A stretch of DNA of 27,674 nt from a virus (Duplodnaviria; Caudoviricetes), in IMG/VR virus record IMGVR_UViG_3300033076_001150, positions 1 to 27,674 of that record. The stretch is one strand, 5' to 3'. The number at the start of each line of letters is the position of its first letter. Position 1 is the stretch's first letter. Below the pieces are notes generated by a model. The model worked only from the letters and a program-made list of their open reading frames with translations. It was not told the origin of the DNA and searched no databases. Below are positions 1,170 through 27,652 of the stretch, piece by piece. A program made the position numbers and the translations under genes.

Positions 1170-2662
1170 TTTCTCCCCTTGACTTGCTGGGGCGTTTTGG
1201 CGATCGTCTCTCGTTCGGCGCGCGGCGCGACCTGGAGCGAGTCCAGAACGTCTCCCCCGTGCCGCTGGCGAAGCGTAACCAGAGTTGGCGCATGCCTGGT
1301 CTGGGGCGTTCGGAGTACGTGCGGCAGATGGAGACGTACGGCCTCGATGCCGTGGTGTACCCCATCGTCAACCGTCTGTTCACCGCCGTAGGCGAGGCGG
1401 AATGGAGCATGCGGACTCGCGCGGCGCGTGAGGAAGATCGAAAGGTCGTGGAGAGTCACCCCGCGCTCGATCTCATTACCACGCCCATCCCTCGCTTCAT
1501 GAACGGCACGGAGCTTATCGAGGCCGGCCAGCAGCATAACGAATTGACGGGCGAGACGAACATCATCGTGGGGTTTACGCCCGGAGTGAAGTACCCGACA
1601 GACCTGTGGCCGTGCCGTCCGGATCGACTGGAGCCCGTGCCGGACGAGAGCGGCTGGCTGCGCGGGTGGATTTACACCGGGCCGGATGGGGATCGTATCC
1701 CGCTGGAAACCACCGAGTTGTTGCGTCACAAGTTGCCGAATCCTCTTGACATGTATCGAGGCATGGGGCCCGTTCAGGCGCTGTTACTTGACATCGATTC
1801 GCAGAGGTACGGGAAGGAGTGGCAAGCCCAATTCTTCCAGAACAGCGCGCGCCCTAGCGGTATCATTCAGGTCGATCGCCGTCTCGGAGATGAAGAATTC
1901 GACGAGATGCGGGACAGGTGGGAGGAGCAGCATCGTGGTGTAAGTAAGGCGCATCGGGTAGCCATCATCGAAAATTCCCAGTGGATCGAATCGTCTTTCT
2001 CCATGCGTGATCTGCAAATGGTGGAGATGGATGCGGCTAGTCGGGACCGCGCATTGGTGGCTTTCGGCTTCCCTAAGAGCATGCTTGGCATTGTGGAAGA
2101 CGTGAATCGCGCGAACGCTGAGGCGGGGGAGTACGTTTTCGCGCGCTGGCTCACTCAGCCACGCCTGAAGCGTTGGCGATCCATGTGGAACACGCAACTA
2201 CTCCCGCTGTACGGCAACGGGACGGAGAAAAGGGTGATGCTCGATTTCACCTCTCCTATTCCGGCCAACAGCGAGGTTGCATTGCAGGAATTGGACGTCA
2301 AGAGTAGAGCGCTCTTAACGCTGGCCGGCACCGGACCTTTTGACGCGGCCAAGGTGCTCGACATGTTGGAGTGGCCAGACCTCGGCTACAAAGAGCCGCC
2401 CCCGCCCACCATTGTTGCGCCGCGCGACGCTCCCGATGAGGAAACGCCGCAGGCGTCATACGACATGGCGATGCGTTGGCAAGTCAGGGGTGAGGATGAC
2501 GACAACGCCTGTGAGCCATGCAAGGAAAACCACGGAAAGCTGTACCGCAACCGGAGTGACGCGTACGCGGACTACCCGGGCGGCAAAGGATACATCAAGT
2601 GCGTAGGCGCTCAGTACGGTAACCAGTGCCGTTGTGAAGTGGTGAAGCGGAGAGCTAAGTGA
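1166..2662 (+). CDS. HK97-family phage portal protein with C-terminal Cys-rich extension
   Basis: HPALDL, GETNI, PNPLDMYRGMGPV, FFQNSARPSGII, FGFPKSMLG and NRANAE portal motifs; upstream of protease and capsid. Confidence 0.93.
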   Translation: MISPLDLLGRFGDRLSFGARRDLERVQNVSPVPLAKRNQSWRMPGLGRSEYVRQMETYGLDAVVYPIVNRLFTAVGEAEWSMRTRAAREEDRKVVESHPALDLITTPIPRFMNGTELIEAGQQHNELTGETNIIVGFTPGVKYPTDLWPCRPDRLEPVPDESGWLRGWIYTGPDGDRIPLETTELLRHKLPNPLDMYRGMGPVQALLLDIDSQRYGKEWQAQFFQNSARPSGIIQVDRRLGDEEFDEMRDRWEEQHRGVSKAHRVAIIENSQWIESSFSMRDLQMVEMDAASRDRALVAFGFPKSMLGIVEDVNRANAEAGEYVFARWLTQPRLKRWRSMWNTQLLPLYGNGTEKRVMLDFTSPIPANSEVALQELDVKSRALLTLAGTGPFDAAKVLDMLEWPDLGYKEPPPPTIVAPRDAPDEETPQASYDMAMRWQVRGEDDDNACEPCKENHGKLYRNRSDAYADYPGGKGYIKCVGAQYGNQCRCEVVKRRAK

Positions 2663-2898
2663 ATGAGTCTCAGCCGTTCGATGGGCGGCACCCCAGTGTG
2701 GCGCACTTCAAGCCGCTATTTTCCTACGCGCACTTACCAGAGGGTAAGCTACGCGACACGTCGGCTTTCGTTTCTTCGCTCGCTGAGACGATGGTGCGTC
2801 AACTGCCAGATGGTCCTGAGCTGAGCGCTGGTTTGCGCAAGTTGCTAGAAGCGAAGGATTGTTTCGTTCGCGCCGCAGTATTGGAGCGTGAAACGTGA
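2659..2898 (+). CDS. Small helical phage protein (FxYxHLP...LRKLLEAKD family), possibly Acb2/Tad1-like
   Basis: GTGA coupling on both sides; motif FSYAHLP...GPELSAGLRKLLEAKDCFVRA. Confidence 0.75.
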   Translation: MNESQPFDGRHPSVAHFKPLFSYAHLPEGKLRDTSAFVSSLAETMVRQLPDGPELSAGLRKLLEAKDCFVRAAVLERET

Positions 2899-3752
2899 AT
2901 AGGCGTAGGCGAGAGTTGCTGGCCGCGCTTCAGCCAGCCGTAGACGCAGTAATGGCGAAGTGTCCGCCCGGTGAGCGTGCGAGCATTCCAGGTCTAGCCG
3001 TGCGCAACGATGGGGGCGCGCGGGAACTGATGATCTATGGGCGCATCGGTGGCGGCGGCTGGTTTGATGACGGGATCGGCGCGAGTGACATTGCAGCCGC
3101 TCTCCGCGAGTTGGGCAGCGGCCACGTAGATGTGCGCATCAACAGTGGCGGTGGGGATGTGTTCGATGGCGTTGCCATCCACTCCCTGTTGGCGCGGCAC
3201 AGCGGTGGCGTCACCACACACATCGATGGATTGGCGGCCAGCGCGGCATCCTTCATCGCCATGGCGGGTGACCGCGTGGTGATGGCGCGCAATGCGTTCA
3301 TCATGATCCATGACGGTATGACGATGACGTATGGCAACGGCAACACGCATCGCGCGAGCGCCGAACTGCTGGACATGATCAGTAACACTATCGCGGACAT
3401 CTATGCGGAGCGTGCCGGCGAAGATGTGGAGCACTGGCGCAACCTCATGACGGTGAACGGCGAGGATGGCACGTGGTACAGCGGCCAGGACGCGCTGTCT
3501 GCCGGCCTGGTGGATGAGCTGACCGGCCAGCCCGACGAGGATGCGCCCGACGCGCGCCTACTCTCTGGCTGGAGCGACGTGCTCCCGGAGCGCATCGTTG
3601 CGTTGCTCCCGAAGCGACAGAGCACGGAGCAACAGGAGAGCGAAAGCACTTCTGTTGCGGAGCAAGATTCAGATGAGGACTATCGCTACCGCATGACGAT
3701 GTGGCAGTGGAGTAACGGCCACACGGCCAGAGAGGAATCAGCATGTCTGTAA
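2895..3752 (+). CDS. ClpP-type head maturation protease
   Basis: RINSGGGDVFDG, IDGLAASAASFI (catalytic Ser), MIHD (His), TWYSGQDAL..GLVDE. Confidence 0.93.
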   Translation: MNRRRRELLAALQPAVDAVMAKCPPGERASIPGLAVRNDGGARELMIYGRIGGGGWFDDGIGASDIAAALRELGSGHVDVRINSGGGDVFDGVAIHSLLARHSGGVTTHIDGLAASAASFIAMAGDRVVMARNAFIMIHDGMTMTYGNGNTHRASAELLDMISNTIADIYAERAGEDVEHWRNLMTVNGEDGTWYSGQDALSAGLVDELTGQPDEDAPDARLLSGWSDVLPERIVALLPKRQSTEQQESESTSVAEQDSDEDYRYRMTMWQWSNGHTAREESACL

Positions 3753-14464: not shown

Positions 14465-17301
14465 TGGCTACCGATAACGTGACGTCCGAGTTTTACATCG
14501 ATGGCGCGTGGCAGACAGCGGTTAGCGGAACGAACCTTGATGAGCGTGTGCGCAAGAATCCCGGCGTTCTGATCACGCGTGGCGCTAGCGACCAGCAGGG
14601 AGCTATCACCCCATCTGCTAGCGATTTCGAGGTAAACAACCGTGACGGCGTGTTCAGTAACCGCAACCCCTCTAGTGTGCTGTACGGGAAATTCCCACGC
14701 TACACAAAAGTTCGTCACAGCATCCCGAATGCGGCCGGAAACCTCGATAGCTACGTTCGGTTTCTCCAGCCCAACAATGCAGGAACGTTGAGCACCACAG
14801 ACAAGGCTGGAATTGAATTTGCGGGGGACATTGATATTCGGTTCGAGATAACGCCGGATACCTGGACGCCGGTCGAGGGTTTTACCATCTGTGGCCGCTA
14901 TCAAGTCACGGGCAACAACCGGGTATGGATGGTGTGGCTGGACTATCTAGGTCGGTTCGTGCTCCGCACCAGCACCAACGGAACCACTACGGTCGACAAC
15001 ACCTTTGCGGAATGGCCGGCCACGCGATACGGGCGGCAAGCCGTACGGATCACGCTGGATGTGGACAGCGGCGGCGGCAACCGCACGGCCACCCTGTACT
15101 ACAGTGACAATATTGGTGGCACCTGGACGCAGCACAGTCAAATTGTGACGGCTGGCACTACCTCGATCTACACGTCTAGCACGGCCCCCTTAGAGGTGGG
15201 CAACGTAGGCGGCGGTGCGCAGATCACCAATCAGACGATGATGTATGGCAAAATACACGCGTTCGAGCTGCGTAACGGAATCGACGGGACGCTGGTAGCG
15301 AACATGAGCGCGGCCAGCCGGGCGGTAGGCGACACAAGCTGGAGTGACGGACTTGGTAACACGTGGGACATTACGGGCACGGCGCGCATTGGCACCGACC
15401 GCATCCGCCACACCGGAGAAATCGACGTGGTTGACTACCGGTGGGATGAAACCGGGCGCGACGCATGGATGCCCCTAAAGAGCCAGGGGGCGCTTAACCG
15501 ACTTCAGGAAACAGACGCACCCGCCGAGAGTCCGATCTATCGGAACCTGATTCAATACGACCAGACGGCGGGCTACTGGCCCCTGGAAGACGGCAGCAGC
15601 AGTACCGTTGTCAGCAGCGCGGCAGGTACTACATCCACGAGCGCGCTCGTGGATTGTTCATTCACGGGAAGTGTGCCGACTGGTCTATACGGAAGTAGCG
15701 GCAGCCTCAAGCTGAATAGCACATCCAGCTACTTCACGGTGGAGGCGGCTGGCCGGAGCAGCACGGGCGAAAACACGATTCTCTTTTACTTTCGCCTCGC
15801 TACTAGTAGTCTGCCGGCTGCTAATCGCCTGTTCGCCTACATTCAGACCACGGGCACGATCCGCCGATGGGAAATCCTAATCGGGCCAACCGGCTATCAA
15901 TTCATAGGTTACAACTCAGCGGGAACTGCTGTCACGACGGACAGCATTGCTTTCGGAAGTGGCGGCAATCCGAACGGGTTTTGGGTTGGAATGCAGCTCA
16001 CTCTTAGTCAGGTTGGCGCGAACGTCAACTATACGTGGCGCTGGTGGGGTGTGCTCAGCGGTACGTTTTGGGTGCACGCACTGGGCGGAGGCACGTACGC
16101 GGGCACGGTCGGCCGTGCGCGTTATTTCACGGCCGGAGCGCTTTCCGATGCTACATTCGCGAATGCTGAAGTAGCACACCTCATCATGACGATGGACGTA
16201 TTCAGCGTCAACAGCACCATTTTCCGGGATAGCAGCAATGGCTACAATGGAGAATTGGCGGGTGTGCGCGCCGCCCGTCTGGCGAGCGAGGAAGGCATCA
16301 CCCTTGAGATTTATGGCGACGTGGCTGACACGCAAGCCATGGGGCCACAGACGTCTCAAGAGGTGTACAATCTAATCGAAGAGTGCGTGCAGATCGACGG
16401 CGGACTCTTGTTCGACTTGCGTGACAAGTTTGGGATGGGGTTCCGTACGCGCGTAGATATAGAGAATCGAAACTGTGACGGCTTTACCGTCCCGTACTCC
16501 AGTAGCTACCTAAGTGCAACTCCGGCATTCACCGAGGACGGCCGGTATACAAAAAACATCATGACGGTAAGTCGGCCCAGCGGAGGTAGCGCACGTGCTA
16601 CAAGAACCGACGGGCCGCTCAGTATCAGTGAGCCACCGTCCGGTATCGGCCAGCGGCCAGGGAGTGTCAGCCTCCCTGGGTACAGTGATTCACAGGTGCA
16701 GCGGCTGGCTGAGTTTCAGGTGTGGCTACGGACGCAAGACGAACTTCGCACACCGCAACTATATTTCGAGTTGCATCGCAACTCAGTCGAGGCAAGCACG
16801 CTTGTTGCCGAAAGAATCATCGCGGCGCATTTGGGTGACTGGTTGACCCTGACTGGTCTTCCGTCTTTCGTAAGTCCAGACGATCGAAAGTTGATGATTC
16901 TCGGCTATTCAGAAAGGTTTAACGGACTTCAGTGGGAAGTGGCGTTCAACGTCATCACGGCGGATGGGTACCGCACCCCCCGCCTAAACTTCGCCGTCCT
17001 GGCCGATAGCGGCACAACCACACTGAATGCCGGAATCAGTAGCAGTGCAACAACCATGGTTTTGAAAACTCCCGTTACTTCACAGGCATGGATCGATAGC
17101 ACAAACTTTGCTAGCGACTTTCCGCTAGTGGTGAGGCTGGGTGGCGAGGTTATGACTATTACCGCACTGACCACACCCAGCGTTGTAGGCAGCGATTATC
17201 AACAAACCGCTACGGTGACACGTAGCCAGAACGGCGTACAGAAATCACACAGTGCTGGGGATGTCGTCGAGGTTCGCGACGCGTATTACATTGGAATGTG
17301 A
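14464..17301 (+). CDS. Large minor tail / baseplate protein with LamG-like beta domains
   Basis: 945 aa after tape measure; ITRGASD, NNRDGVFSNRNPSS.LYG, YWPLEDG motifs. Confidence 0.8.
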   Translation: MATDNVTSEFYIDGAWQTAVSGTNLDERVRKNPGVLITRGASDQQGAITPSASDFEVNNRDGVFSNRNPSSVLYGKFPRYTKVRHSIPNAAGNLDSYVRFLQPNNAGTLSTTDKAGIEFAGDIDIRFEITPDTWTPVEGFTICGRYQVTGNNRVWMVWLDYLGRFVLRTSTNGTTTVDNTFAEWPATRYGRQAVRITLDVDSGGGNRTATLYYSDNIGGTWTQHSQIVTAGTTSIYTSSTAPLEVGNVGGGAQITNQTMMYGKIHAFELRNGIDGTLVANMSAASRAVGDTSWSDGLGNTWDITGTARIGTDRIRHTGEIDVVDYRWDETGRDAWMPLKSQGALNRLQETDAPAESPIYRNLIQYDQTAGYWPLEDGSSSTVVSSAAGTTSTSALVDCSFTGSVPTGLYGSSGSLKLNSTSSYFTVEAAGRSSTGENTILFYFRLATSSLPAANRLFAYIQTTGTIRRWEILIGPTGYQFIGYNSAGTAVTTDSIAFGSGGNPNGFWVGMQLTLSQVGANVNYTWRWWGVLSGTFWVHALGGGTYAGTVGRARYFTAGALSDATFANAEVAHLIMTMDVFSVNSTIFRDSSNGYNGELAGVRAARLASEEGITLEIYGDVADTQAMGPQTSQEVYNLIEECVQIDGGLLFDLRDKFGMGFRTRVDIENRNCDGFTVPYSSSYLSATPAFTEDGRYTKNIMTVSRPSGGSARATRTDGPLSISEPPSGIGQRPGSVSLPGYSDSQVQRLAEFQVWLRTQDELRTPQLYFELHRNSVEASTLVAERIIAAHLGDWLTLTGLPSFVSPDDRKLMILGYSERFNGLQWEVAFNVITADGYRTPRLNFAVLADSGTTTLNAGISSSATTMVLKTPVTSQAWIDSTNFASDFPLVVRLGGEVMTITALTTPSVVGSDYQQTATVTRSQNGVQKSHSAGDVVEVRDAYYIGM

Positions 17302-19912: not shown

Positions 19913-19960
19913 GACAACCGAGTGATGCCGGTAGTCTACCCGGCATCACTCGGTTGTCAA
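19913..19960 (-). promoter_or_regulatory. Conserved-spacer promoter copy 2 embedded in a 19-bp inverted repeat
   Basis: Minus strand TTGACA-accgagtgatgccggg-TAGACT; arms 19913-19931 and 19940-19958. Confidence 0.75.
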
Positions 19961-20338
19961 CTACCCCCTACAGCCGGGGCAGTGGATGCCGATGCAGGCA
20001 CTGACTCATCGCGTCGTCTCCAGCCGCATGGTTCCGGGCATGGTCTGCCACGGCACAAGACCAAAAAAGTGAACATCAACAATCTCCGGGTTGGACTTGT
20101 CCGGCTGGACTGCCTCTACTACCTGGCGCTCACCACGCCAGATCACTCCGTCTCCGCGCTTGAGATCGGCTGCCCTCACTCGGGCGGTCATACAAGCACC
20201 TGCCCGATTGGCAGGTCAATCTGCCGGGCGGCGGCATGATCGCGCAAGTGGTACATGAGCACGTTTACCGCATCCTTGATCTGCCGGTGCACGATGACTA
20301 CCCCCTACAGCCGGGGCAGTGGATGCCGATGCAGGCAC
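19960..20338. repeat. 42-bp exact direct repeat (19960-20001 and 20297-20338)
   Basis: ACTACCCCCTACAGCCGGGGCAGTGGATGCCGATGCAGGCAC occurs twice. Confidence 0.9.
20006..20191 (-). CDS. Small SH3/KOW-like beta protein
   Basis: VRAADLKRGDGVIWRGERQVVEAV pattern. Confidence 0.55.
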   Translation of the reverse strand: MTARVRAADLKRGDGVIWRGERQVVEAVQPDKSNPEIVDVHFFGLVPWQTMPGTMRLETTR

Positions 20339-20777
20339 CTCGATGACTGATCGATTTCTTCGCGATCAAGGTAGCGAGAGCTGCACCAGCAATCGCCACC
20401 GGGAACACGTAGCGACTCTCCCACAGCAGATAGCCGACAGCTAGTAACGCCATAACGACCGCCGCAACTAGGACGGGGACCCACACACCCCTAGCCGCTT
20501 GACGCCGTTTCGCGAGGCGAATGTACTCCACCTGAAACACTCCTTTAGTGATGCGCGGATTGTAGACATTCTGAGCAATCTCGCCGCGCGCTGCCATCTC
20601 GCGCAACTCTTGCATCAAAGAGTGGCGCTGGTGTGCCGGCGCTACCGCAGTGCCTACCTGAACCCTTTCTGTCTGCGCTCCTGCGCCGTCATGCCACCAT
20701 AGGGGAGTCCCCATAATCCCGGCTTTCGTCCCTCGCCGACCGTTACCCACTTTAAACACTTCTCCCTCACTGGACAC
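20298..20777 (-). CDS. Membrane protein with C-terminal CxxxHCxxC; start uncertain (possibly 20615)
   Basis: Two TMs, ends CIGIHCPGCRG; the 5' part overlaps the WhiB-like gene by 124 nt. Confidence 0.6.
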   Translation of the reverse strand: MSSEGEVFKVGNGRRGTKAGIMGTPLWWHDGAGAQTERVQVGTAVAPAHQRHSLMQELREMAARGEIAQNVYNPRITKGVFQVEYIRLAKRRQAARGVWVPVLVAAVVMALLAVGYLLWESRYVFPVAIAGAALATLIAKKSISHRGACIGIHCPGCRG

Positions 20778-20932
20778 GAGTCACTTATCATAGCGAGTTG
20801 CATTTCAGCTTCCTCGCCGCCGCGTTCGAGAATTTTATCGACAAGCTTTCTGCCGATGTCGCTATTGCAACGTGCGCCATCAAGCTCAGGCGGGTTGCCG
20901 ATCGCCTCTAGAAACCACGAAACATTACCCAT
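20654..20932 (-). CDS. WhiB-like transcription factor (second Cys replaced by Ser)
   Basis: GARC...ISDSCPVREKCL...WGLPYGGMTAQERR resembles WhiB C..CxxC-x5-C and GVWGGxxxxER. Confidence 0.7.
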   Translation of the reverse strand: MGNVSWFLEAIGNPPELDGARCNSDIGRKLVDKILERGGEEAEMQLAMISDSCPVREKCLKWVTVGEGRKPGLWGLPYGGMTAQERRQKGFR

Positions 20933-21474
20933 CCAATACCGCCCCAGAATGTCAGCGCAGGCGCTATGCGTACCAAAAAGACCAACGCCTGAAGCACGTA
21001 CCCCTCTACAGTTCTCTCAGCCTTCTCTCTGGCAATACGTTGCCGCCCTGCTTTGGCTGGAGTGATGCGTCTGGGGTTGCGCTTATTTCCCCTCACATTG
21101 TAGACGGGGAGAAGAAACAAAATCCAAGCAGACTCACTAAATTCTCTCCAGAATTTGAACCGGGGGAACAAGCAAGGGAGCGGGTAACATTTTGGATCAA
21201 GGTCTGACCAGTCTTTACCTGCCGCGCCGTGGCGTCGATCGCCGTACAGATGCTGCCTATCTCGATTGCGCCGACTGGATGTTTGCCCCACGTAGGCATT
21301 GTGCCGACCACTGAAAAACAGCGGCACCAGCGCAGGCCACCACGGAGCGCCGAGACTATGAAGCATCGTCGCGGCCACCAAGCAGGCTGGAAGCAAAAAC
21401 CGCAGAGGAAGCCCAAATCTCGCATGGGGCTTACGTGTGCGCCAGAGATAGCATCCGCGCGTCTTCCAACTCAT
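20908..21474 (-). CDS. GIY-YIG nuclease-like protein with transmembrane segments
   Basis: GCYLW...AYVGQT..R..QH...E..I...PVYN; hydrophobic insert between the two motifs and a hydrophobic C-terminus. Confidence 0.65.
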   Translation of the reverse strand: MSWKTRGCYLWRTRKPHARFGLPLRFLLPACLVAATMLHSLGAPWWPALVPLFFSGRHNAYVGQTSSRRNRDRQHLYGDRRHGAAGKDWSDLDPKCYPLPCLFPRFKFWREFSESAWILFLLPVYNVRGNKRNPRRITPAKAGRQRIAREKAERTVEGYVLQALVFLVRIAPALTFWGGIGWVMFRGF

Positions 21475-21821
21475 TACGCTTCCGTGTCCTTGTATTTGTA
21501 GATGACTCGTCGGACGACATCGATGGATACCTGATTGCAGTCTGCTATGGCACGCAACGTCATACCCTCTTTTCTCTGCTGCTTTATGACTCCGATAAGT
21601 CTCGGAGCGAGAGCGCTTTTGTGATGCGTTTCTTCGGAGGGGAGGTCAGGTAGGCCCATGAGGACTTTTTCCATGTTCGACACCACGATTGAACTACGCT
21701 CCACACGCATATACGTAGAAGCACGGATGCGCTTAATGGCCTCGATTCTGGCCTGCCCATGCAACTTCCGATCAATTAACCGGTAAACCCTCTGCCGCGC
21801 GGCTTTCGTACCGTGGTTCAC
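21474..21821 (-). CDS. HTH DNA-binding protein
   Basis: C-terminal GMTLRAIADCNQVSIDVVRRVI helix-turn-helix. Confidence 0.7.
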   Translation of the reverse strand: MNHGTKAARQRVYRLIDRKLHGQARIEAIKRIRASTYMRVERSSIVVSNMEKVLMGLPDLPSEETHHKSALAPRLIGVIKQQRKEGMTLRAIADCNQVSIDVVRRVIYKYKDTEA

Positions 21822-22006
21822 AATCCCGCCCGCTTCCTTAGGTACGCCTCACGCGCATTCAGTAACGCCCGCTCGGCTGCACTGCCTCGCTGCACGGCGA
21901 AATACACCCACCCCACGCCCGGCCAGTAGCGGCCCCGCACCACGAGGCGTGCGCCCCCTGTGTCATGCCGCGCCACAAGACCGCGAGCCTCATTCAGTCT
22001 GTTCAT
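21818..22006 (-). CDS. Small hypothetical protein
   Basis: ATGA/GTGA coupling on both sides. Confidence 0.6.
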   Translation of the reverse strand: MNRLNEARGLVARHDTGGARLVVRGRYWPGVGWVYFAVQRGSAAERALLNAREAYLRKRAGL

Positions 22007-23964
22007 CGAATTTCCCTCTCTGCCGCCTGCGCGGCACGTCGGCTACGCGCATAGGCAGCCATTTCATCCAGGTCATACAGCCATCCAGCATTGGCCGACC
22101 CACCTTGAATTCCAGGAAAGCCGCTCGGGTCACGCTTGCGCCAATTCCTGAGAACACTCTCCGTGACGCCTAGATGTGACAGTGCGTCTACCATGTCGGC
22201 CAGGGACTTCAGGGTACGCGGGGGGAGCTCGCGGGGTCTCGCTGGGTCATGACCCAGCGAATCCCCCAGCGTAATATGCGTGGATGTACCTACATTGGTT
22301 CGTTGGGTCACCCCTGCATTGACACTGGCAAACGGTGACGCAGCGTTAGAAATACCGGCACTAGCGTACTCGCGAGCCTCACTTTCTGTGACAAGGAGCG
22401 CTTGCACGTGCACGATCTCATCCTGCGCCCACACCACCCAACGCCCTAGCTCTTTCGGCTTGCGCACCGGCTTCAGTTCCGGGATGAGCATTTTCCATGT
22501 CTGCGGGGTGTAGCGACTGAGTAGCCGAATTTGGAAGTTCTCCCGTAGGTCTGCGTTGCCATTAAATACACGGCTACTAAAGCGCTGCGCGGCAAGGAAG
22601 TCGAACATGCCGAACGCGCGGCCAGCAAAGTCGAGACTCTGAAAGCCCATCAGTGCGGGACTCCGTACAGGCATGGCTCGCCGCTCGTCTGGTTCTGCCA
22701 TGTTCCGCAAGCGCGCCCAGTACTCCCAAAGTAGAACGCTCGTCATGTTCCACTCTTCGCGCACCACCAGCACTCTCGGACGGAGTGCTCGCTCTTCTTT
22801 CGAAAGTGCTTTGCGAATGTCCACCTCTTGCCCGATACGCTCCCCCATTTCATGGATGCCCTCAATGTCCGTGACGATGGTTACCCCCGGCAGACCCTGC
22901 GCCCACTCATGGCTTTCCGCTTTCCAGTCCAGGATAATTACGCTCCACCCCCAGTGGAGCGCCTGCATAATCACTGCACGCATGAGCATGCTCTTTCCTG
23001 CCCCGCTCCCGGCACTCAGTCCGATATGCGGAGAGGCATCGATCATCTCGGCACTCACTAGTTCATTGTTCGCACCTACTCCCAGAACGGGGCGGTACTC
23101 TTCACTCACCTGAGCGAAGGTGTCCATGTACTCGCGCCAGTGCGCCACCTTGGGTGGCTGTGGTGGGCAGCTCACTAGCACGCGTGGGTGGTTGCCGGCC
23201 AACTGCCAAGAGAACACGGGGTCCTGCAACCCCAGCTTGTTACCCACCACCCGCTCAATACCCCTAATGGACGCGGGGTCTCCGCCGAAGTTGGCCGGGA
23301 GCATGATCTCAACACTTTTGCCCCCTGGCTCTAGATAGTTGCGGGGGACACGAATCCACTCCAGATCTCCAGAGCGGAAGATGTTGTCCATACGCTCTGC
23401 CAGGGCCTTAGCTAGCGGCTCCACCACGGTACGCTGCCACTCCCGGCGCCCTTCATATACCTGCACGATGCGCAGACGTCGCACGGTCGGAGCATCCCGC
23501 TTCAGTTGCTCAGCGTCCATGCTCTCTACTTGTTCCGCCGTGTACTCCGTCTGCTCTCGAACCAGGAGCGGGAGACGTAGGCCGCGCTCCCGAATCTGAG
23601 AGCACTCCACGGCCAGGAGTACCGGAGAGAGCACCACCAGGTGAGCATGAGCGAGAGAGAGTAGAGCGCCCCACTGGCGAAGGAGCGCCAGCGCCAACAC
23701 AGGGAGCACCAGGAGCGCCAGCCATAGGAGCGCCAGCCTGATGACAAGGCGCTGCCAGCCAGCCAACCTCAGCCAGCGGTGCGGCTCCCCCCGGCTGGCC
23801 GGAGAGAAAAACGTGCTGTTGGTCCAACGCACGTTATCCATGGGCCGGCCCAGGAGGAAGCGATACCACCAGGCAAGGCGCGGCCGATTGCTGATGAATT
23901 GTGCTTCCGGGTAGTGGTGATACTCCACTACCTTCTCGGCGCGATCCCTACTGAACCAACCCAC
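22003..23964 (-). CDS. TraB-like FtsK/SpoIIIE-superfamily ATPase with N-terminal TMs and C-terminal HTH
   Basis: PHIGLSAGSGAGKS (Walker A), IILDWK, LVVREEWN (Walker B), GRAFGM..AAQR, LRENF; C-terminal LGVTESVLRNWRKRDPSGFP..LYDLDEM. Confidence 0.8.
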   Translation of the reverse strand: MGWFSRDRAEKVVEYHHYPEAQFISNRPRLAWWYRFLLGRPMDNVRWTNSTFFSPASRGEPHRWLRLAGWQRLVIRLALLWLALLVLPVLALALLRQWGALLSLAHAHLVVLSPVLLAVECSQIRERGLRLPLLVREQTEYTAEQVESMDAEQLKRDAPTVRRLRIVQVYEGRREWQRTVVEPLAKALAERMDNIFRSGDLEWIRVPRNYLEPGGKSVEIMLPANFGGDPASIRGIERVVGNKLGLQDPVFSWQLAGNHPRVLVSCPPQPPKVAHWREYMDTFAQVSEEYRPVLGVGANNELVSAEMIDASPHIGLSAGSGAGKSMLMRAVIMQALHWGWSVIILDWKAESHEWAQGLPGVTIVTDIEGIHEMGERIGQEVDIRKALSKEERALRPRVLVVREEWNMTSVLLWEYWARLRNMAEPDERRAMPVRSPALMGFQSLDFAGRAFGMFDFLAAQRFSSRVFNGNADLRENFQIRLLSRYTPQTWKMLIPELKPVRKPKELGRWVVWAQDEIVHVQALLVTESEAREYASAGISNAASPFASVNAGVTQRTNVGTSTHITLGDSLGHDPARPRELPPRTLKSLADMVDALSHLGVTESVLRNWRKRDPSGFPGIQGGSANAGWLYDLDEMAAYARSRRAAQAAEREIR

Positions 23965-23966
23965 GA

Positions 23967-24191
23967 TCAGCGACCACCTTTTTTATCTTGCGACGTGACA
24001 TGCCAGTGATCGCCCCATTGACATTCGATCACTCTTTTTGGCATGGCGTACCTGCTTTCTGCCGCCGCGCGCCTAGCCGGATCGAGATACAAACCCAATA
24101 ACCAGCGCTGCGCCTCATCGAAGGTTGGAAAGATGATCTTCCCCGTTCTGCTACAGCGGCTTTTCATTACAACGCCACCATCCCACCGCAT
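23967..24191 (-). CDS. Small Cys/His (putative Zn-binding) protein
   Basis: CSRTGKIIF...RVIECQWGDHWHVTS. Confidence 0.65.
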   Translation of the reverse strand: MRWDGGVVMKSRCSRTGKIIFPTFDEAQRWLLGLYLDPARRAAAESRYAMPKRVIECQWGDHWHVTSQDKKGGR

Positions 24192-24201
24192 GCCATGCTA
24201 T

Positions 24202-25047
24202 TTATCGCACACGCGCCCTATTCATGTGGTCGCGGATGACCGCAACCAGGTCCGACCGGACGCTACGCCCGTCCACCTTCGGGCCAATATCCGCGCGAGG
24301 GTCGTTACGCAGCAGACGTGCAATCTTCATGTACAGGCGAATAGTTGCAACACTCACGCCGGTCTTGTCCTTGATGTCCGCAACCGACATGCCGGGCATC
24401 TCTTCGAGAATGAGGCGAACGGCTTCACCAATTACACCGCTGTCCTTGCGGGCACGTGCCGGCACAATCTCGCGAGCCGCCGCCTCAAGGCGTCCCTTGC
24501 GAACGGCTCCACTGATTACAACGCTGTCCCTGCGGGCATGTGCCGGCACAACCTCGCGAGCCGCCGCCTCAAGGCGTAGTCCAAGGTTTATCGGCTCGCT
24601 CCCGACCGGCCCGCCCTTCTCGTGCAGCGGGTTTTCGGCGGGGGTTTCCTGCGCTGGCCGCTTCCGCGTAAGAAGAACGGTCATGGTGCAGCCGATCATT
24701 AGTCCGTCAATGGCAAGGGGACCAATGAACTGAATGACGGAAGTCTCGCCCATCATGCCCAGCAGGGTAAATTGGTGCTCATAGCTGGTGATGGCGGCCG
24801 GCACAGATGCGGCCAACAGCATCGTCCGAGTAAGGTTGTGGGTCCAGCGCTTTTCCCAGTAAACGCGAACCAATACTTCGATGCCGGCAAAGGTGAACAT
24901 GGGCCAGACGACCGCGCCGGGGACGCGGAGCCACAGAGATACATCACTGACGGCAAGCACGGCGTGCGTGATGTTCGCGGTCACGCTGACGATAAGCGCG
25001 ACTACTAGCCAAAAGCGGGCATAGTTGTGCCCATTGTTGTTGCCCAT
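24202..25047 (-). CDS. DUF2637/Spd-like four-TM protein with C-terminal HTH-like segment
   Basis: SVTANITHA, WP, AAITSYEH, PLAIDGLM motifs; MSVADIKDKTGVSVATIR; GAGGG RBS favours ATG 25047. Confidence 0.7.
   Translation of the reverse strand: MGNNNGHNYARFWLVVALIVSVTANITHAVLAVSDVSLWLRVPGAVVWPMFTFAGIEVLVRVYWEKRWTHNLTRTMLLAASVPAAITSYEHQFTLLGMMGETSVIQFIGPLAIDGLMIGCTMTVLLTRKRPAQETPAENPLHEKGGPVGSEPINLGLRLEAAAREVVPAHARRDSVVISGAVRKGRLEAAAREIVPARARKDSGVIGEAVRLILEEMPGMSVADIKDKTGVSVATIRLYMKIARLLRNDPRADIGPKVDGRSVRSDLVAVIRDHMNRARVR
24415..24576. repeat. Two 78-bp coding repeats with 84-bp period
   Basis: RLEAAAREVVPAHARRDSVVISGAVR / RLEAAAREIVPARARKDSGVIGEAVR. Confidence 0.85.
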
Positions 25048-25144
25048 GAATCGACCCTCACTTTTTCTTTCTCGCCCAAAGATGGGAAGCCGCGCCAGTG
25101 GCTGTGTCGAAACCGTTCGCTCCGCTAGCGCGACCTCATCTCTT

Positions 25145-25172
25145 ATGATACCCGCGATGAGTGAGATGTCAA
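25145..25172 (-). promoter_or_regulatory. Promoter for the membrane protein/TraB-like operon
   Basis: Minus strand ccagTTGACA-tctcactcatcgcggg-TATCAT, same 16-nt spacing but different spacer. Confidence 0.7.
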
Positions 25173-25211
25173 CTGGGTGCAGGGAGGTACGCCTGCGTGC
25201 AACTTGCACTC

Positions 25212-25245
25212 AAAAGCGACGAGGCGCCGTAGCGCTCTCGCCGCC
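25212..25245 (-). terminator. Probable intrinsic terminator after the amidase gene
   Basis: Minus strand GCGGCGAG-a-GCGC-TACG-GCGC-CTCGTCGC-TTTT. Confidence 0.6.
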
Positions 25246-25272: not shown

Positions 25273-25890
25273 TTACCACTCCTGGTTGTCGCGCCAGCCT
25301 GCCACGTGCGGGATCAAATGCCTTCCTGGCATCGACATTAGCTTCAGGAATAGCTCGGACGGAACTACATCCTGCGGCAGTCGCCCATCGTCGAATACGT
25401 GGAAACCGGCGTCGGCCAGAGCCTGATCGACCAACTGACTGCACATCATGGTGCGCGTGCTCGTGATGTAGTCGGACAGGCGTGAAGAAGAAACGCCAGC
25501 CGCGCGCAGCGCCAGAGCGAGGTACGTCAAAAAGTTGTACGGCGTGCCGACACTTGCGCTGGCTGCCGCCACCACTGCGTTAGCCTGATCATCGACGTAC
25601 TCTGGCCTAATGTAGACGTGCTTAGACGTCCATTGATCCTCTGTCACAGTCACGCACTCCGCGCCGCCCGGCATAGCTTGCACAAAGCGGGGGTAAACGA
25701 GTCCGGCTGGCGTGCCGACAATTACGCCAACATGCCGTATGTTCCACCAGCGCCGCCAGGATATGCGCTCTTTCCGGCCAGCCAGTGCGACCTGTCCGAC
25801 CCCGACCGGAACAACGCCAGGGAAAAACCCCCCGATGGGGCCAAACAGGATATCTCCCGGACGCAGACCATACAGCTCCATTGCCCTCAC
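25273..25890 (-). CDS. Permuted papain-like amidase (YaeF/YiiX, circularly permuted NlpC/P60)
   Basis: LRPGDILF, RHVGVIVG (His), VGTPYN, MMCSQLVDQAL (Cys), VVPSEL. Confidence 0.8.
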   Translation of the reverse strand: MRAMELYGLRPGDILFGPIGGFFPGVVPVGVGQVALAGRKERISWRRWWNIRHVGVIVGTPAGLVYPRFVQAMPGGAECVTVTEDQWTSKHVYIRPEYVDDQANAVVAAASASVGTPYNFLTYLALALRAAGVSSSRLSDYITSTRTMMCSQLVDQALADAGFHVFDDGRLPQDVVPSELFLKLMSMPGRHLIPHVAGWRDNQEW

Positions 25891-25910
25891 CCCTTTCGTA
25901 GATCAATGCA

Positions 25911-26005
25911 TGATCTGACAGAAAACCGCGCGTGCACCCTTCCCGGGTAAGTCCCTACCTCTCCGGGGCGGGGACGTGCACGCGCGGCAGTCTGTCAGAT
26001 CAGGC
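25911..26005 (-). ncRNA. Structured intergenic element A
   Basis: Minus strand TGATCTGACAGA-CT-GCCGCGCGTGCAC [38 nt] GTGCACGCGCGGT-TT-TCTGTCAGATCA. Confidence 0.65.
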
Positions 26006-26362: not shown

Positions 26363-26429
26363 TACTCGCCCCTTCGTAGGCGCAACGGAAAGTCAACTAG
26401 CACTCTAGCTGTTGACTGTAGCCGAAAAC

Positions 26430-26533
26430 TGATCGACCAGAAAGCCGCACGTGCTCAATCTAGGAAAGATTCTTCGGCGCGCGGAGGGCACGCCTTCATC
26501 AAAGAGCACGTGCGGCAGTCTGATGGATCAGGC
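26430..26533 (-). ncRNA. Structured intergenic element B (homolog of A)
   Basis: Minus strand TGATCCATCAGA-CT-GCCGCACGTGCTC [47 nt] GAGCACGTGCGGC-TT-TCTGGTCGATCA. Confidence 0.65.
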
Positions 26534-27357: not shown

Positions 27358-27652
27358 TGGCCTAACCGTTCCCGCTGCCATTTTCGCCGCCGTAGCCATA
27401 GCTGTCACCGCTGCCGACGCCGACGCCGTAGCCGTCGCCGTCGCCGTCGCCGCCGTAGCCGTAGCCGTCCCCGCCACCGCCGCCATCTCCGCCGCCGTAG
27501 CCATCTCCGCCGCTGTCGCCGCCACCGCTACCGCCGCCGCCGTAGCCGTAGCTGTCGTAATCTGATGCGCTGTTCACTCGGGCACTCCCTCGATGCTGGC
27601 GCGAGTCCTGCTTGGCCTAACCGTTCCCGCTGCCATTTTCGCCGCCGTAGCC
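27358..27652. repeat. 40-bp exact direct repeat (27358-27397 and 27613-27652)
   Basis: TGGCCTAACCGTTCCCGCTGCCATTTTCGCCGCCGTAGCC occurs twice. Confidence 0.9.
27362..27577 (-). CDS. Gly/Asp/Tyr-rich low-complexity protein
   Basis: GAGGGAG RBS, GTG start; GDGYGYGGDG repeats. Confidence 0.65.
   Translation of the reverse strand: MNSASDYDSYGYGGGGSGGGDSGGDGYGGGDGGGGGDGYGYGGDGDGDGYGVGVGSGDSYGYGGENGSGNG

Follow-up and report, generated by a model that had tools for sequence, protein, structure and literature searches.

The window, by which we mean the whole 27.7-kb stretch of DNA analysed, is part of a tailed-phage genome of roughly 43 kb and holds portal, Clp protease, capsid, tape measure and amidase genes. 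The seven open reading frames in which a plasmid-style transfer operon had originally been predicted were all found in place, tightly spaced on the minus strand (Table 1). Only the ATPase gene and the DUF2637 gene could be tied to plasmid tra loci, which narrows the transfer assignment to these two.

Table 1. Position and basis of the features identified in the module and directly upstream of it
Feature	Position	Strand	Basis
Likely terminator behind the C92-like gene: GC-rich hairpin, short U tail	25205..25245	-	Folding
Sigma70-type promoter TTGACA-16-TATCAT; phage-wide motif with four copies in the window	25145..25172	-	Also at this position in G001 and L015
Diverged DUF2637/Spd-type membrane protein, 281 aa, 3-4 TM, HTH-like tail	24202..25047	-	phrog_2342; homologues over Pfam cut-off
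Cys/His protein, 74 aa	23967..24191	-	phrog_3424, E 2e-4
Tra-like FtsK/TcpA-fold dsDNA translocase, 653 aa, 'pRL2-11' clade	22003..23964	-	Fold, motifs, 2 TM, MerR/Xis-type HTH
62-aa ORF	21818..22006	-	Homologue searches blank
115-aa protein, weak C-terminal HTH	21474..21821	-	HTH_23, E 0.012
Likely GIY-YIG nuclease, C-terminal TM	20908..21474	-	Motif level only
WhiB-like regulator	20654..20932	-	E 5.5e-5
Membrane protein, 2 TM, CxGxHCxGC motif at end	20298..20777	-	Hydrophobicity, synteny

Genes and signals of the module

The promoter expected to head the run was confirmed. It matches 11/12 consensus bases, and in two of the four relatives examined (G001 and L015) a promoter of this type precedes the DUF2637 gene by 103-104 nt. 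In G001 the promoters carry a palindrome across the -35 box, which could be an operator. The terminator proposed to insulate the run from upstream transcription was recovered as a hairpin with a z of -3.4 (2/200 shuffles were equally good), but its tail counts only 4 U. No regulator of the TraR/Kor type was seen in the module.

The DUF2637 gene starts at ATG 25047, with GAGG upstream, and contains an internal 84-nt duplication. Its product had been described as a four-TM, DUF2637/Spd-like protein. Three TM segments scored above 1.5 and the fourth fell below the threshold. The protein itself gave no PF10935 match in Pfam, whereas homologues exceeded the cut-off (27 bits vs 22.8 for the close homologue in L015, E 2e-13 for that in L020). 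Direct homology to the spdB2-like protein of SLP2 or to SpdB of pIJ101 was not detected, nor was a match among cultured phages.

For the protein thought to combine a GIY-YIG domain with a TM segment, the motifs YVG..R..H..E..PVYN were invariant in 9/9 sequences and the C-terminal TM was found, but the domain was seen at motif level only: profile support was weak (hhalign probability 3%, E 0.013) and Pfam, the PDB and the Atlas returned no match. It is predicted as a likely GIY-YIG nuclease. The WhiB-like regulator was borne out, and its gene is kept downstream of the ATPase gene in relatives. The start of the membrane protein gene at 20298..20777 is uncertain, being either ATG 20615 or a GTG further upstream.

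The order DUF2637-ATPase-GIY-WhiB-membrane gene was found in five other phages, with ATPase identities of 39-53%. Conservation of the run as a unit thus applies to this five-gene core and does not extend to the Cys/His gene (sole match phrog_3424), the 62-aa gene and the HTH gene, which had no scored homologue in the related phage loci; for the 62-aa ORF profile searches gave none either. The module is carried by 4/17 near-complete structural relatives, is absent from 13/17, and is accessory.

Fold, phylogeny and distribution of the ATPase

The predicted model of the ATPase had a pLDDT of 95 and a best Foldseek match at E 1e-15. Its closest solved structure is TcpA (E 1.5e-15, vs 4e-14 for FtsK), with TM scores of about 0.55-0.59 over 370-425 columns. 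Both matches extend over the RecA-like motor fold with its alpha and beta domains. TcpA itself serves a relaxase-dependent system as its coupling protein. A PDB profile search agreed with the FtsK/SpoIIIE/TcpA motor fold. Throughout the family the catalytic residues are retained (Walker A lysine and Walker B EE, both 50/50; arginine finger, 49/50; sensor Q, 48/50). Walker B reads EE and not DE, as it does in TraB of pJV1 and pSN22. Two N-terminal hydrophobic segments were present, predicted as helical in an early model (4-sequence alignment, pLDDT 56). The FtsK-family ATPase with N-terminal TMs was thereby verified; PF01580 gave no match, and only DUF87, AAA_10 and T4SS-DNA_transf appeared, all below cut-off. 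The C-terminal HTH is likewise present, but its weak matches are to MerR/Nu1/Xis/AlpA types; no match to FtsK-gamma was seen, and the classic TraB winged HTH that had been supposed is unsupported.

In a fast maximum likelihood tree of 45 motor cores, the phylogenetic check that had been suggested, the ATPase stood apart from chromosomal FtsK and grouped with linear-plasmid proteins in a separate monophyletic 'pRL2-11' clade (SH-aLRT 100). A chromosomal FtsK carried as a moron was rejected on this placement. The clade joins pFiD188, pZL12 and pJV1/pSN22 at an SH-aLRT of 90.8, on long branches. Core identity to the linear-plasmid members (pRL2, pPR2, pFRL3, pFRL6, pNPL1) was 31-39% and to transfer-tested Tra proteins 15-22%; Tra of pIJ101, SLP2 and pZL12 gave no match to the family HMM even at E 10. 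No transfer test of any clade member was found in the literature.

The clade occurs on linear plasmids of actinomycetes, on AICE-like elements and in phages. It counts 630 cluster representatives at E <= 1e-10, and AICE surveys based on PF01580 would likely miss it. Plasmid records matching the ATPase number 81, 61 of them from Streptomyces, and the plasmid members fetched were linear in 9/9 cases. In pRL2, pPR2, pFRL6 and pFRL3 a DUF2637 gene precedes the ATPase-family gene; in four of the nine fetched plasmids no DUF2637 gene is annotated next to it, and in a fifth the family member there lacks annotation. In pFRL3 and pFRL6 the gene occupies the slot of the FtsK-type tra of SLP2, with the spdB2-like gene on one side and further conjugation genes on the other. 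Within 3 kb of the ATPase gene, 17/20 viral and 22/25 genome loci have a gene with several TM segments, the latter count being based on robust markers; among the viral loci the marker family AAA_25, wrongly scored as structural, affects L031 alone. Mycelial genera account for 24/25 genome loci, and a phylum-wide search returned 5/401 genomes, a figure that has no bearing on host morphology. Dagobah has a 309-aa form of the ATPase without TM. Sequence comparison supports an origin of the ATPase and the DUF2637 membrane protein in the tra-spd gene pool of actinomycete plasmids and AICEs.

The host is likely a filamentous soil actinomycete, and we infer a mycelial one, probably of the Micromonosporaceae. 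A CRISPR search of 301 genomes from a single family gave no host spacer; the two short matches that scored best lay outside arrays.

Possible functions of the module

We lean slightly towards the explanation that the ATPase and the DUF2637 protein pump phage dsDNA between hyphal compartments during infection, without virions. What the analysis shows directly is the fold, the catalytic motifs, the TM anchor, the tra-spd pool origin, the synteny, the promoter and the lack of detectable integrase and ParA in complete relatives. Newly replicated phage dsDNA would be driven by the membrane-anchored ATPase across hyphal cross-walls or hypha-to-hypha contacts, and neighbouring compartments would thereby be seeded without virions. 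The module would be expressed early from the phage-wide promoter, ATPase hexamers would form at septa, the MerR/Xis-type HTH may load DNA at a specific site or at DNA ends, and the DUF2637 protein would serve as the pore, by analogy with SpdB2. According to PMC4447253, TraB is sufficient for DNA transfer, and spreading depends on pores formed by SpdB2. More speculatively, the membrane-bound GIY-YIG-like protein might cut concatemers at the pore.

A role in phage DNA metabolism within the infected compartment (membrane tethering of replication, protein clearing, or handling of concatemers or host DNA with the GIY-YIG-like nuclease) appears unlikely. It would agree with the position of the ATPase gene in the early/replication arm, behind genes for SSB, nuclease and helicase, and with the GIY-TM gene as its neighbour in both integrase-less phage groups and not in temperate loci or plasmids, where GIY genes were counted only at loci with the ATPase. 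Rackow et al. interpreted the FtsK-like gene of Geonosis as related to replication (PMC11536984), and phage FtsK-like genes exist in unicellular hosts; pIJ101 Tra matches 155 records from Bacillus phages and 52 from Mycobacterium phages, whose hosts are non-mycelial. However, this role would leave unexplained why the DUF2637 partner is retained, why the motor has a TM anchor and why, in the genome scan, the clade is confined to mycelial genera, and most structural relatives replicate without the ATPase. A packaging role was rejected, since the complete relative G001 has its own terminase.

The locus had originally been read as a possible phage/conjugative hybrid. A true hybrid would persist as an extrachromosomal replicon and conjugate between mycelia like pZL12, which PMC3583192 cites as a plasmid-phage of Streptomyces. 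Besides this precedent, iteron-like repeats follow a primase-helicase gene in G001 and G002, and G001, of which 39 non-structural proteins were scanned with Pfam, has an RHH regulator and the promoter palindrome. Against this, the search for an integrase or replicon found tyrosine integrase in 0/27 records, serine recombinase in none of 10 carrier records and ParA in none of 13 records (AAA_31, this partition type only); neither integrase nor ParA was detectable in ten carrier genomes, whereas pZL12 encodes ParA and ParB, an integrase and a regulator of GntR type. The combination of integrase, Rep and Tra that defines an AICE (PMC3218068) was not seen, with no tyrosine or serine integrase in the 10 carrier records and the window itself only partial. 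Nor were the clt repeats of TraB systems recovered: no 8-mer cluster lay beside the ATPase in 5 phage sequences, in a scan that recovered the pJV1 cluster, was negative for pIJ101 and pRL2 and thus misses some real loci. Because integrase, ParA and clt-type repeats were not found, the plasmid-like conjugative hybrid is unsupported and we regard it as rather improbable; spread within the mycelium during infection is, we infer, the likelier of the two.

Delivery of phage DNA into developing spores or branches, with WhiB altering development as a persistence strategy, would suit the FtsK/SpoIIIE fold and the conserved downstream WhiB-like gene, and a connection of phage FtsK-like and WhiB genes with host development is drawn in PMC13587820. 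We consider it quite improbable: the ATPase clade is plasmid-derived and not chromosomal FtsK, WhiB is common in actinophages generally (PMC13587820), and the proposal partly overlaps with pumping between compartments. A role of the membrane proteins in exclusion or host inhibition, through Kil-like toxicity or a block to superinfection or plasmid entry, is very improbable, as a fully conserved 650-aa motor with all catalytic residues exceeds that need, even though unregulated traB is toxic in plasmids (PMC4447253) and the module joins a strong consensus promoter to the lack of a visible Kor regulator.

Several observations were counted against pumping between compartments, namely the low identity to tested Tra proteins, the relaxase dependence of TcpA, the lack of a clt-type cluster and of TraR/Kor, the 13/17 relatives without the module, the TM-less Dagobah form, the FtsK-like genes in phages of non-mycelial hosts and the 4/9 linear plasmids with no DUF2637 gene annotated beside the ATPase.

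Tentatively, and with considerable doubt, the pumping explanation may be carried further. A strictly lytic actinophage clade might use as 'movement proteins' a translocase of linear-plasmid type, a Spd pore and a nuclease bound to the membrane. Concatemers would be cleaved at the septum and their DNA pumped, end first, into adjacent compartments and touching hyphae, infection would run ahead of lysis and beyond receptor-level and extracellular defences, and Woodruffviruses would have arrived at the same solution with a different Tra. Phage spread through septate multicellular bacteria is poorly known. Were naked DNA passed from compartment to compartment by a lytic phage, infection would resemble the cell-to-cell movement of plant viruses, adsorption barriers and developmental containment would be bypassed, and a route of gene flow would exist in antibiotic-producing actinomycetes. 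A direct test could be made with cultured phages that have a pIJ101-like Tra and with cultured Micromonosporaceae whose prophages carry the clade.

Comparison with known systems

With the TraB/Spd systems of pSVH1, pIJ101, pJV1 and pWTY27 the phage module shares an N-terminal TM, FtsK-type motor and C-terminal HTH, an SpdB2/DUF2637-type membrane partner, coupled genes and the lack of a visible relaxase. It differs in its motor, which forms a separate clade below PF01580 detection and has an HTH of MerR/Xis type, in the lack of clt-type repeats or TraR/Kor, in its single Spd-type gene as compared to 3-7, and in its virion-encoding genome. The linear plasmids pRL2, pPR2, pFRL3, pFRL6 and pNPL1 belong to the same clade and several have the DUF2637 gene upstream, whereas the phage locus is without transglycosylase or VirB4-like genes. 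The genome of pZL12/phiZL12 also unites tailed-phage genes, an FtsK-type tra and an adjacent membrane gene, but it is a 90-kb circular replicon with the partition, integrase and regulator genes named above, none of which is detectable in the present group of ~43 kb; its motor gp71 is 15% identical to the phage ATPase.

Plasmid-type Tra also occurs in the cultured phages YDN12, TP1604, Xkcd426 and Geonosis (Woodruffvirus) and in the Satis group, one of which is predicted to be virulent, and in Xkcd426 a membrane gene lies two genes upstream of Tra. The pIJ101-like Tra of cultured Woodruffviruses (43-51% identity) is a separate, independent capture. The FtsK-like motors of cultured phages are taken as replication or development genes in PMC11536984 and PMC13587820. 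SpdB2 homologues are present in phiC31 and VWB, and PMC4447253 proposes that phage SpdB2 spreads phage DNA; with this suggestion and pZL12 already in print, the newness of the idea is reduced. In the cultured Streptomyces phages the motors are pIJ101-like, whereas here Tra, DUF2637 and GIY-TM genes occur together.

Genome layout and transcription signals

The window comprises an entire record of 27,674 bp, a partial tailed-phage genome of ~59% GC whose structural genes resemble those of Streptomyces phage Dagobah (49% for the capsid). Genes for portal, Clp protease, capsid, tail, tape measure and amidase make up the + arm, which the - arm meets convergently at a 27-bp perfect inverted repeat; the module forms the distal portion of the - arm. 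Re-examination of the sequence agreed with the original prediction of a coupled run of ORFs under one promoter, in ORFs, coupling and promoter alike. The promoter motif is not peculiar to the module: it occurs four times in the window and eight times in G001, a complete relative. In G001 and at phage locus L015 a copy likewise lies ~100 nt ahead of the DUF2637 gene; none was found within 260 nt of this gene at loci L002 or L004. In G001 and G002 the -35 box lies within a palindrome (CCAGTTGACAACTGG), which may be an operator for the RHH protein.

The permuted papain-like gene upstream of the module, retained in G001, G004 and G420, could act on the cell envelope. The stem-loops resemble the sites at which RNase III processes early phage transcripts, and the arrangement around the 42-nt repeat suggests a minor insertion or a duplication.

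Features of the window and of related phage genomes and loci
Feature	Sequence	Position	Strand	Remark
Repeated phage promoter family	window	183, 19960, 25172, 27356	+, -, -, -	
Intergenic long stem-loops, related	window	25908-26005, 26429-26531	-	common lower stem and 2x2 internal loop; z -8.1 and -8.4
Permuted papain-like gene	window	25273-25890		C92/NlpC-type
42-nt exact direct repeat	window	20297-20338		3' end of last membrane gene
Region of its copy	window	19913-20001		337 nt downstream; then promoter, own sequence repeated inverted as 19-bp hairpin
Low-complexity ORF	window	27362-27577		Gly/Asp/Tyr-rich, beside promoter
40-nt exact repeat	window	27613-27652		flanks this ORF
Globin-domain gene	L012 (in G001)	2256-2960		Pfam E 7e-6; downstream of module
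Three 25-bp tandem repeats	G001	39496-39570		at convergent junction
Iteron-like repeats	G001	14931-15116		follow primase-helicase gene
Iteron-like repeats	G002	32623-32775		follow primase-helicase gene
Motor-only gp87	L005 (Dagobah)	43826-44755		
Motor-only gene	L031	3437-4372		

Fold and phylogeny of the ATPase

The structure model of residues 164-549 (ATPase numbering counts from four codons into the 653-aa protein) was built from 131 sequences and reached a pLDDT of 95 and a pTM of 0.90. It matched TcpA (E 1.5e-15) and FtsK motors (4e-14) across both domains, with EccC and HerA ranking lower, and a PDB profile search ranked the motors identically. The latter search gave weak MerR/Nu1/AlpA/Xis matches for the C-terminus; phrog_66 matched there at E 0.001. 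Across 50 family sequences the Walker A lysine and the EE of Walker B never vary; 49 keep the arginine finger and 48 the sensor glutamine. At E <= 0.001 the family counts 908 representatives. The pRL2-11 clade, to which the ATPase belongs, was monophyletic (SH-aLRT 100) in a fast tree of 45 cores whose deep branches are uncertain. Its core shares 15-22% identity with Tra of pIJ101, SLP2, pSG5, pJV1, pSN22 and pZL12, and 21-22% with chromosomal FtsK. PF01580, by which AICEs are defined in PMC3218068, does not match the window ATPase. TM-less, motor-only members of 309-311 aa, in Dagobah and at L031, form the basal branch of the clade.

Distribution in phages, plasmids and genomes

Clade members were found at 21 viral loci, two of which (L002 and L003) seem to come from a single phage. 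In the window's group (G001, G002/3, G004, L015 and L173) the order DUF2637-ATPase-GIY-WhiB-membrane is kept, adjoining convergent lysis genes; at L016, ATPase and GIY are present and the sequence starts just before the ATPase. In a second group (L026-28, L030, L053) these components recur with the ATPase inverted, and a third set has integrases nearby (e.g. L019, L020, L022-25). The TM-bearing GIY-YIG-like gene accompanies the ATPase in the integrase-less groups only. Since the closest ATPase (L015, 53%) belongs to a phage whose tail and lysis genes gave no match to those of the window, the - arm has switched virion modules.

Conservation was sampled by a tail gene, meant to avoid ascertainment on the ATPase: 70 loci gave 20 records >33 kb, short contigs and one duplicate being excluded. 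The full ATPase is present in four of the 20 (4/17 near-complete records), a fifth match spanning only the HTH. The DUF2637 profile matches three of these four records; the fourth has a weak match to the window DUF2637 protein. A DUF2637-like gene occurs in 2/16 records without full ATPase (relatedness uncorrected). We therefore regard the pair, from these uncorrected sequence counts, as accessory but co-occurring.

Among plasmids, 81 records match the clade, 61 of them from Streptomyces. All nine fetched are recorded as linear, and four (pRL2, pPR2, pFRL6, pFRL3) have an annotated DUF2637 gene directly upstream; in pRL2 a GntR gene diverges from this operon. TraB is noted on rhodococcal linear plasmids in PMC6852188. 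The species-genome scan used clade-specific peptides and thus maps this clade rather than all Tra genes. It gave 25 loci. At 11 of them a homologue of tape measure, tail or capsid lies no more than 10 kb away; others are AICE-like (integrase, Prim-Pol, DUF3631) or plasmid-like. By family, we assign 20 to Micromonosporaceae, four to Pseudonocardiaceae and one to a Dormibacteraceae bin. Two Micromonospora loci, L039 and L041, look like satellite elements in which the DUF2637-Tra pair accompanies an integrase, AAA_25 and a capsid gene; no tail genes were found within the fetched flanks.

Among the phage records that pIJ101 Tra hits, 22 are from Streptomyces phages; those of Woodruffviruses are 43-51% identical. 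In cultured Woodruffviruses and the Satis group the pIJ101-like Tra genes are annotated solely as 'FtsK-like DNA translocase'; in Xkcd426 (L061, gp76-78) a membrane-protein gene lies two genes upstream.

Lifestyle and a possible role in DNA movement

The complete G001 (43,111 bp with terminal repeat) encodes helicase, primase-helicase, nuclease, RHH regulator and terminase; a Pfam scan of its 39 non-structural proteins gave no integrase or partition match. Tyrosine integrase was found in 0/27 records, serine recombinase in 0/10 carriers (2/3 control records positive) and ParA in 0/13 records, which fits a lifestyle that is lytic or, at most, a transient carrier state. A mycelial actinomycete is suggested as host by WhiB, by the range of the clade and by tail-gene matches at the DNA level (65-74%) to several genomes of Micromonosporaceae.

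According to PMC4447253, plasmid TraB by itself transfers dsDNA between hyphae, and SpdB2 makes pores on which spreading through the recipient mycelium depends. For a phage that lacks maintenance genes, conjugation as a stable replicon would bring little benefit, but such a phage could profit from seeding adjacent compartments with its DNA before lysis. We lean slightly towards such seeding by the ATPase and the DUF2637 protein. A repeat scan found no clt-type cluster and the clade's plasmid members are linear, which makes loading at DNA ends, as in an 'end first' model, plausible. That the GIY-YIG-like TM protein would cut concatemers is speculation.

Against movement, most relatives are without the module, Dagobah and L031 carry TM-less forms, and phages of unicellular hosts also carry FtsK-like genes; we also know of no clade member that has been tested. 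Searches of the open literature, subscription journals being mostly outside coverage, turned up no study in which an integrase-less phage was tested for spreading without virions. Tra/FtsK-like phage genes are treated as related to replication or development in PMC11536984 and PMC13587820, and the accessible part of PMC7650747 does not mention FtsK for Dagobah.

The DUF2637-ATPase pair is real and conserved, a core of two genes that derives from plasmids, in a group of actinophages that appear to be lytic. For pZL12, transfer is cited as requiring a tra gene plus two neighbours (PMC3583192). This plasmid-phage has ParAB, integrase and GntR, whereas neither integrase nor ParA was detected in the carrier records.
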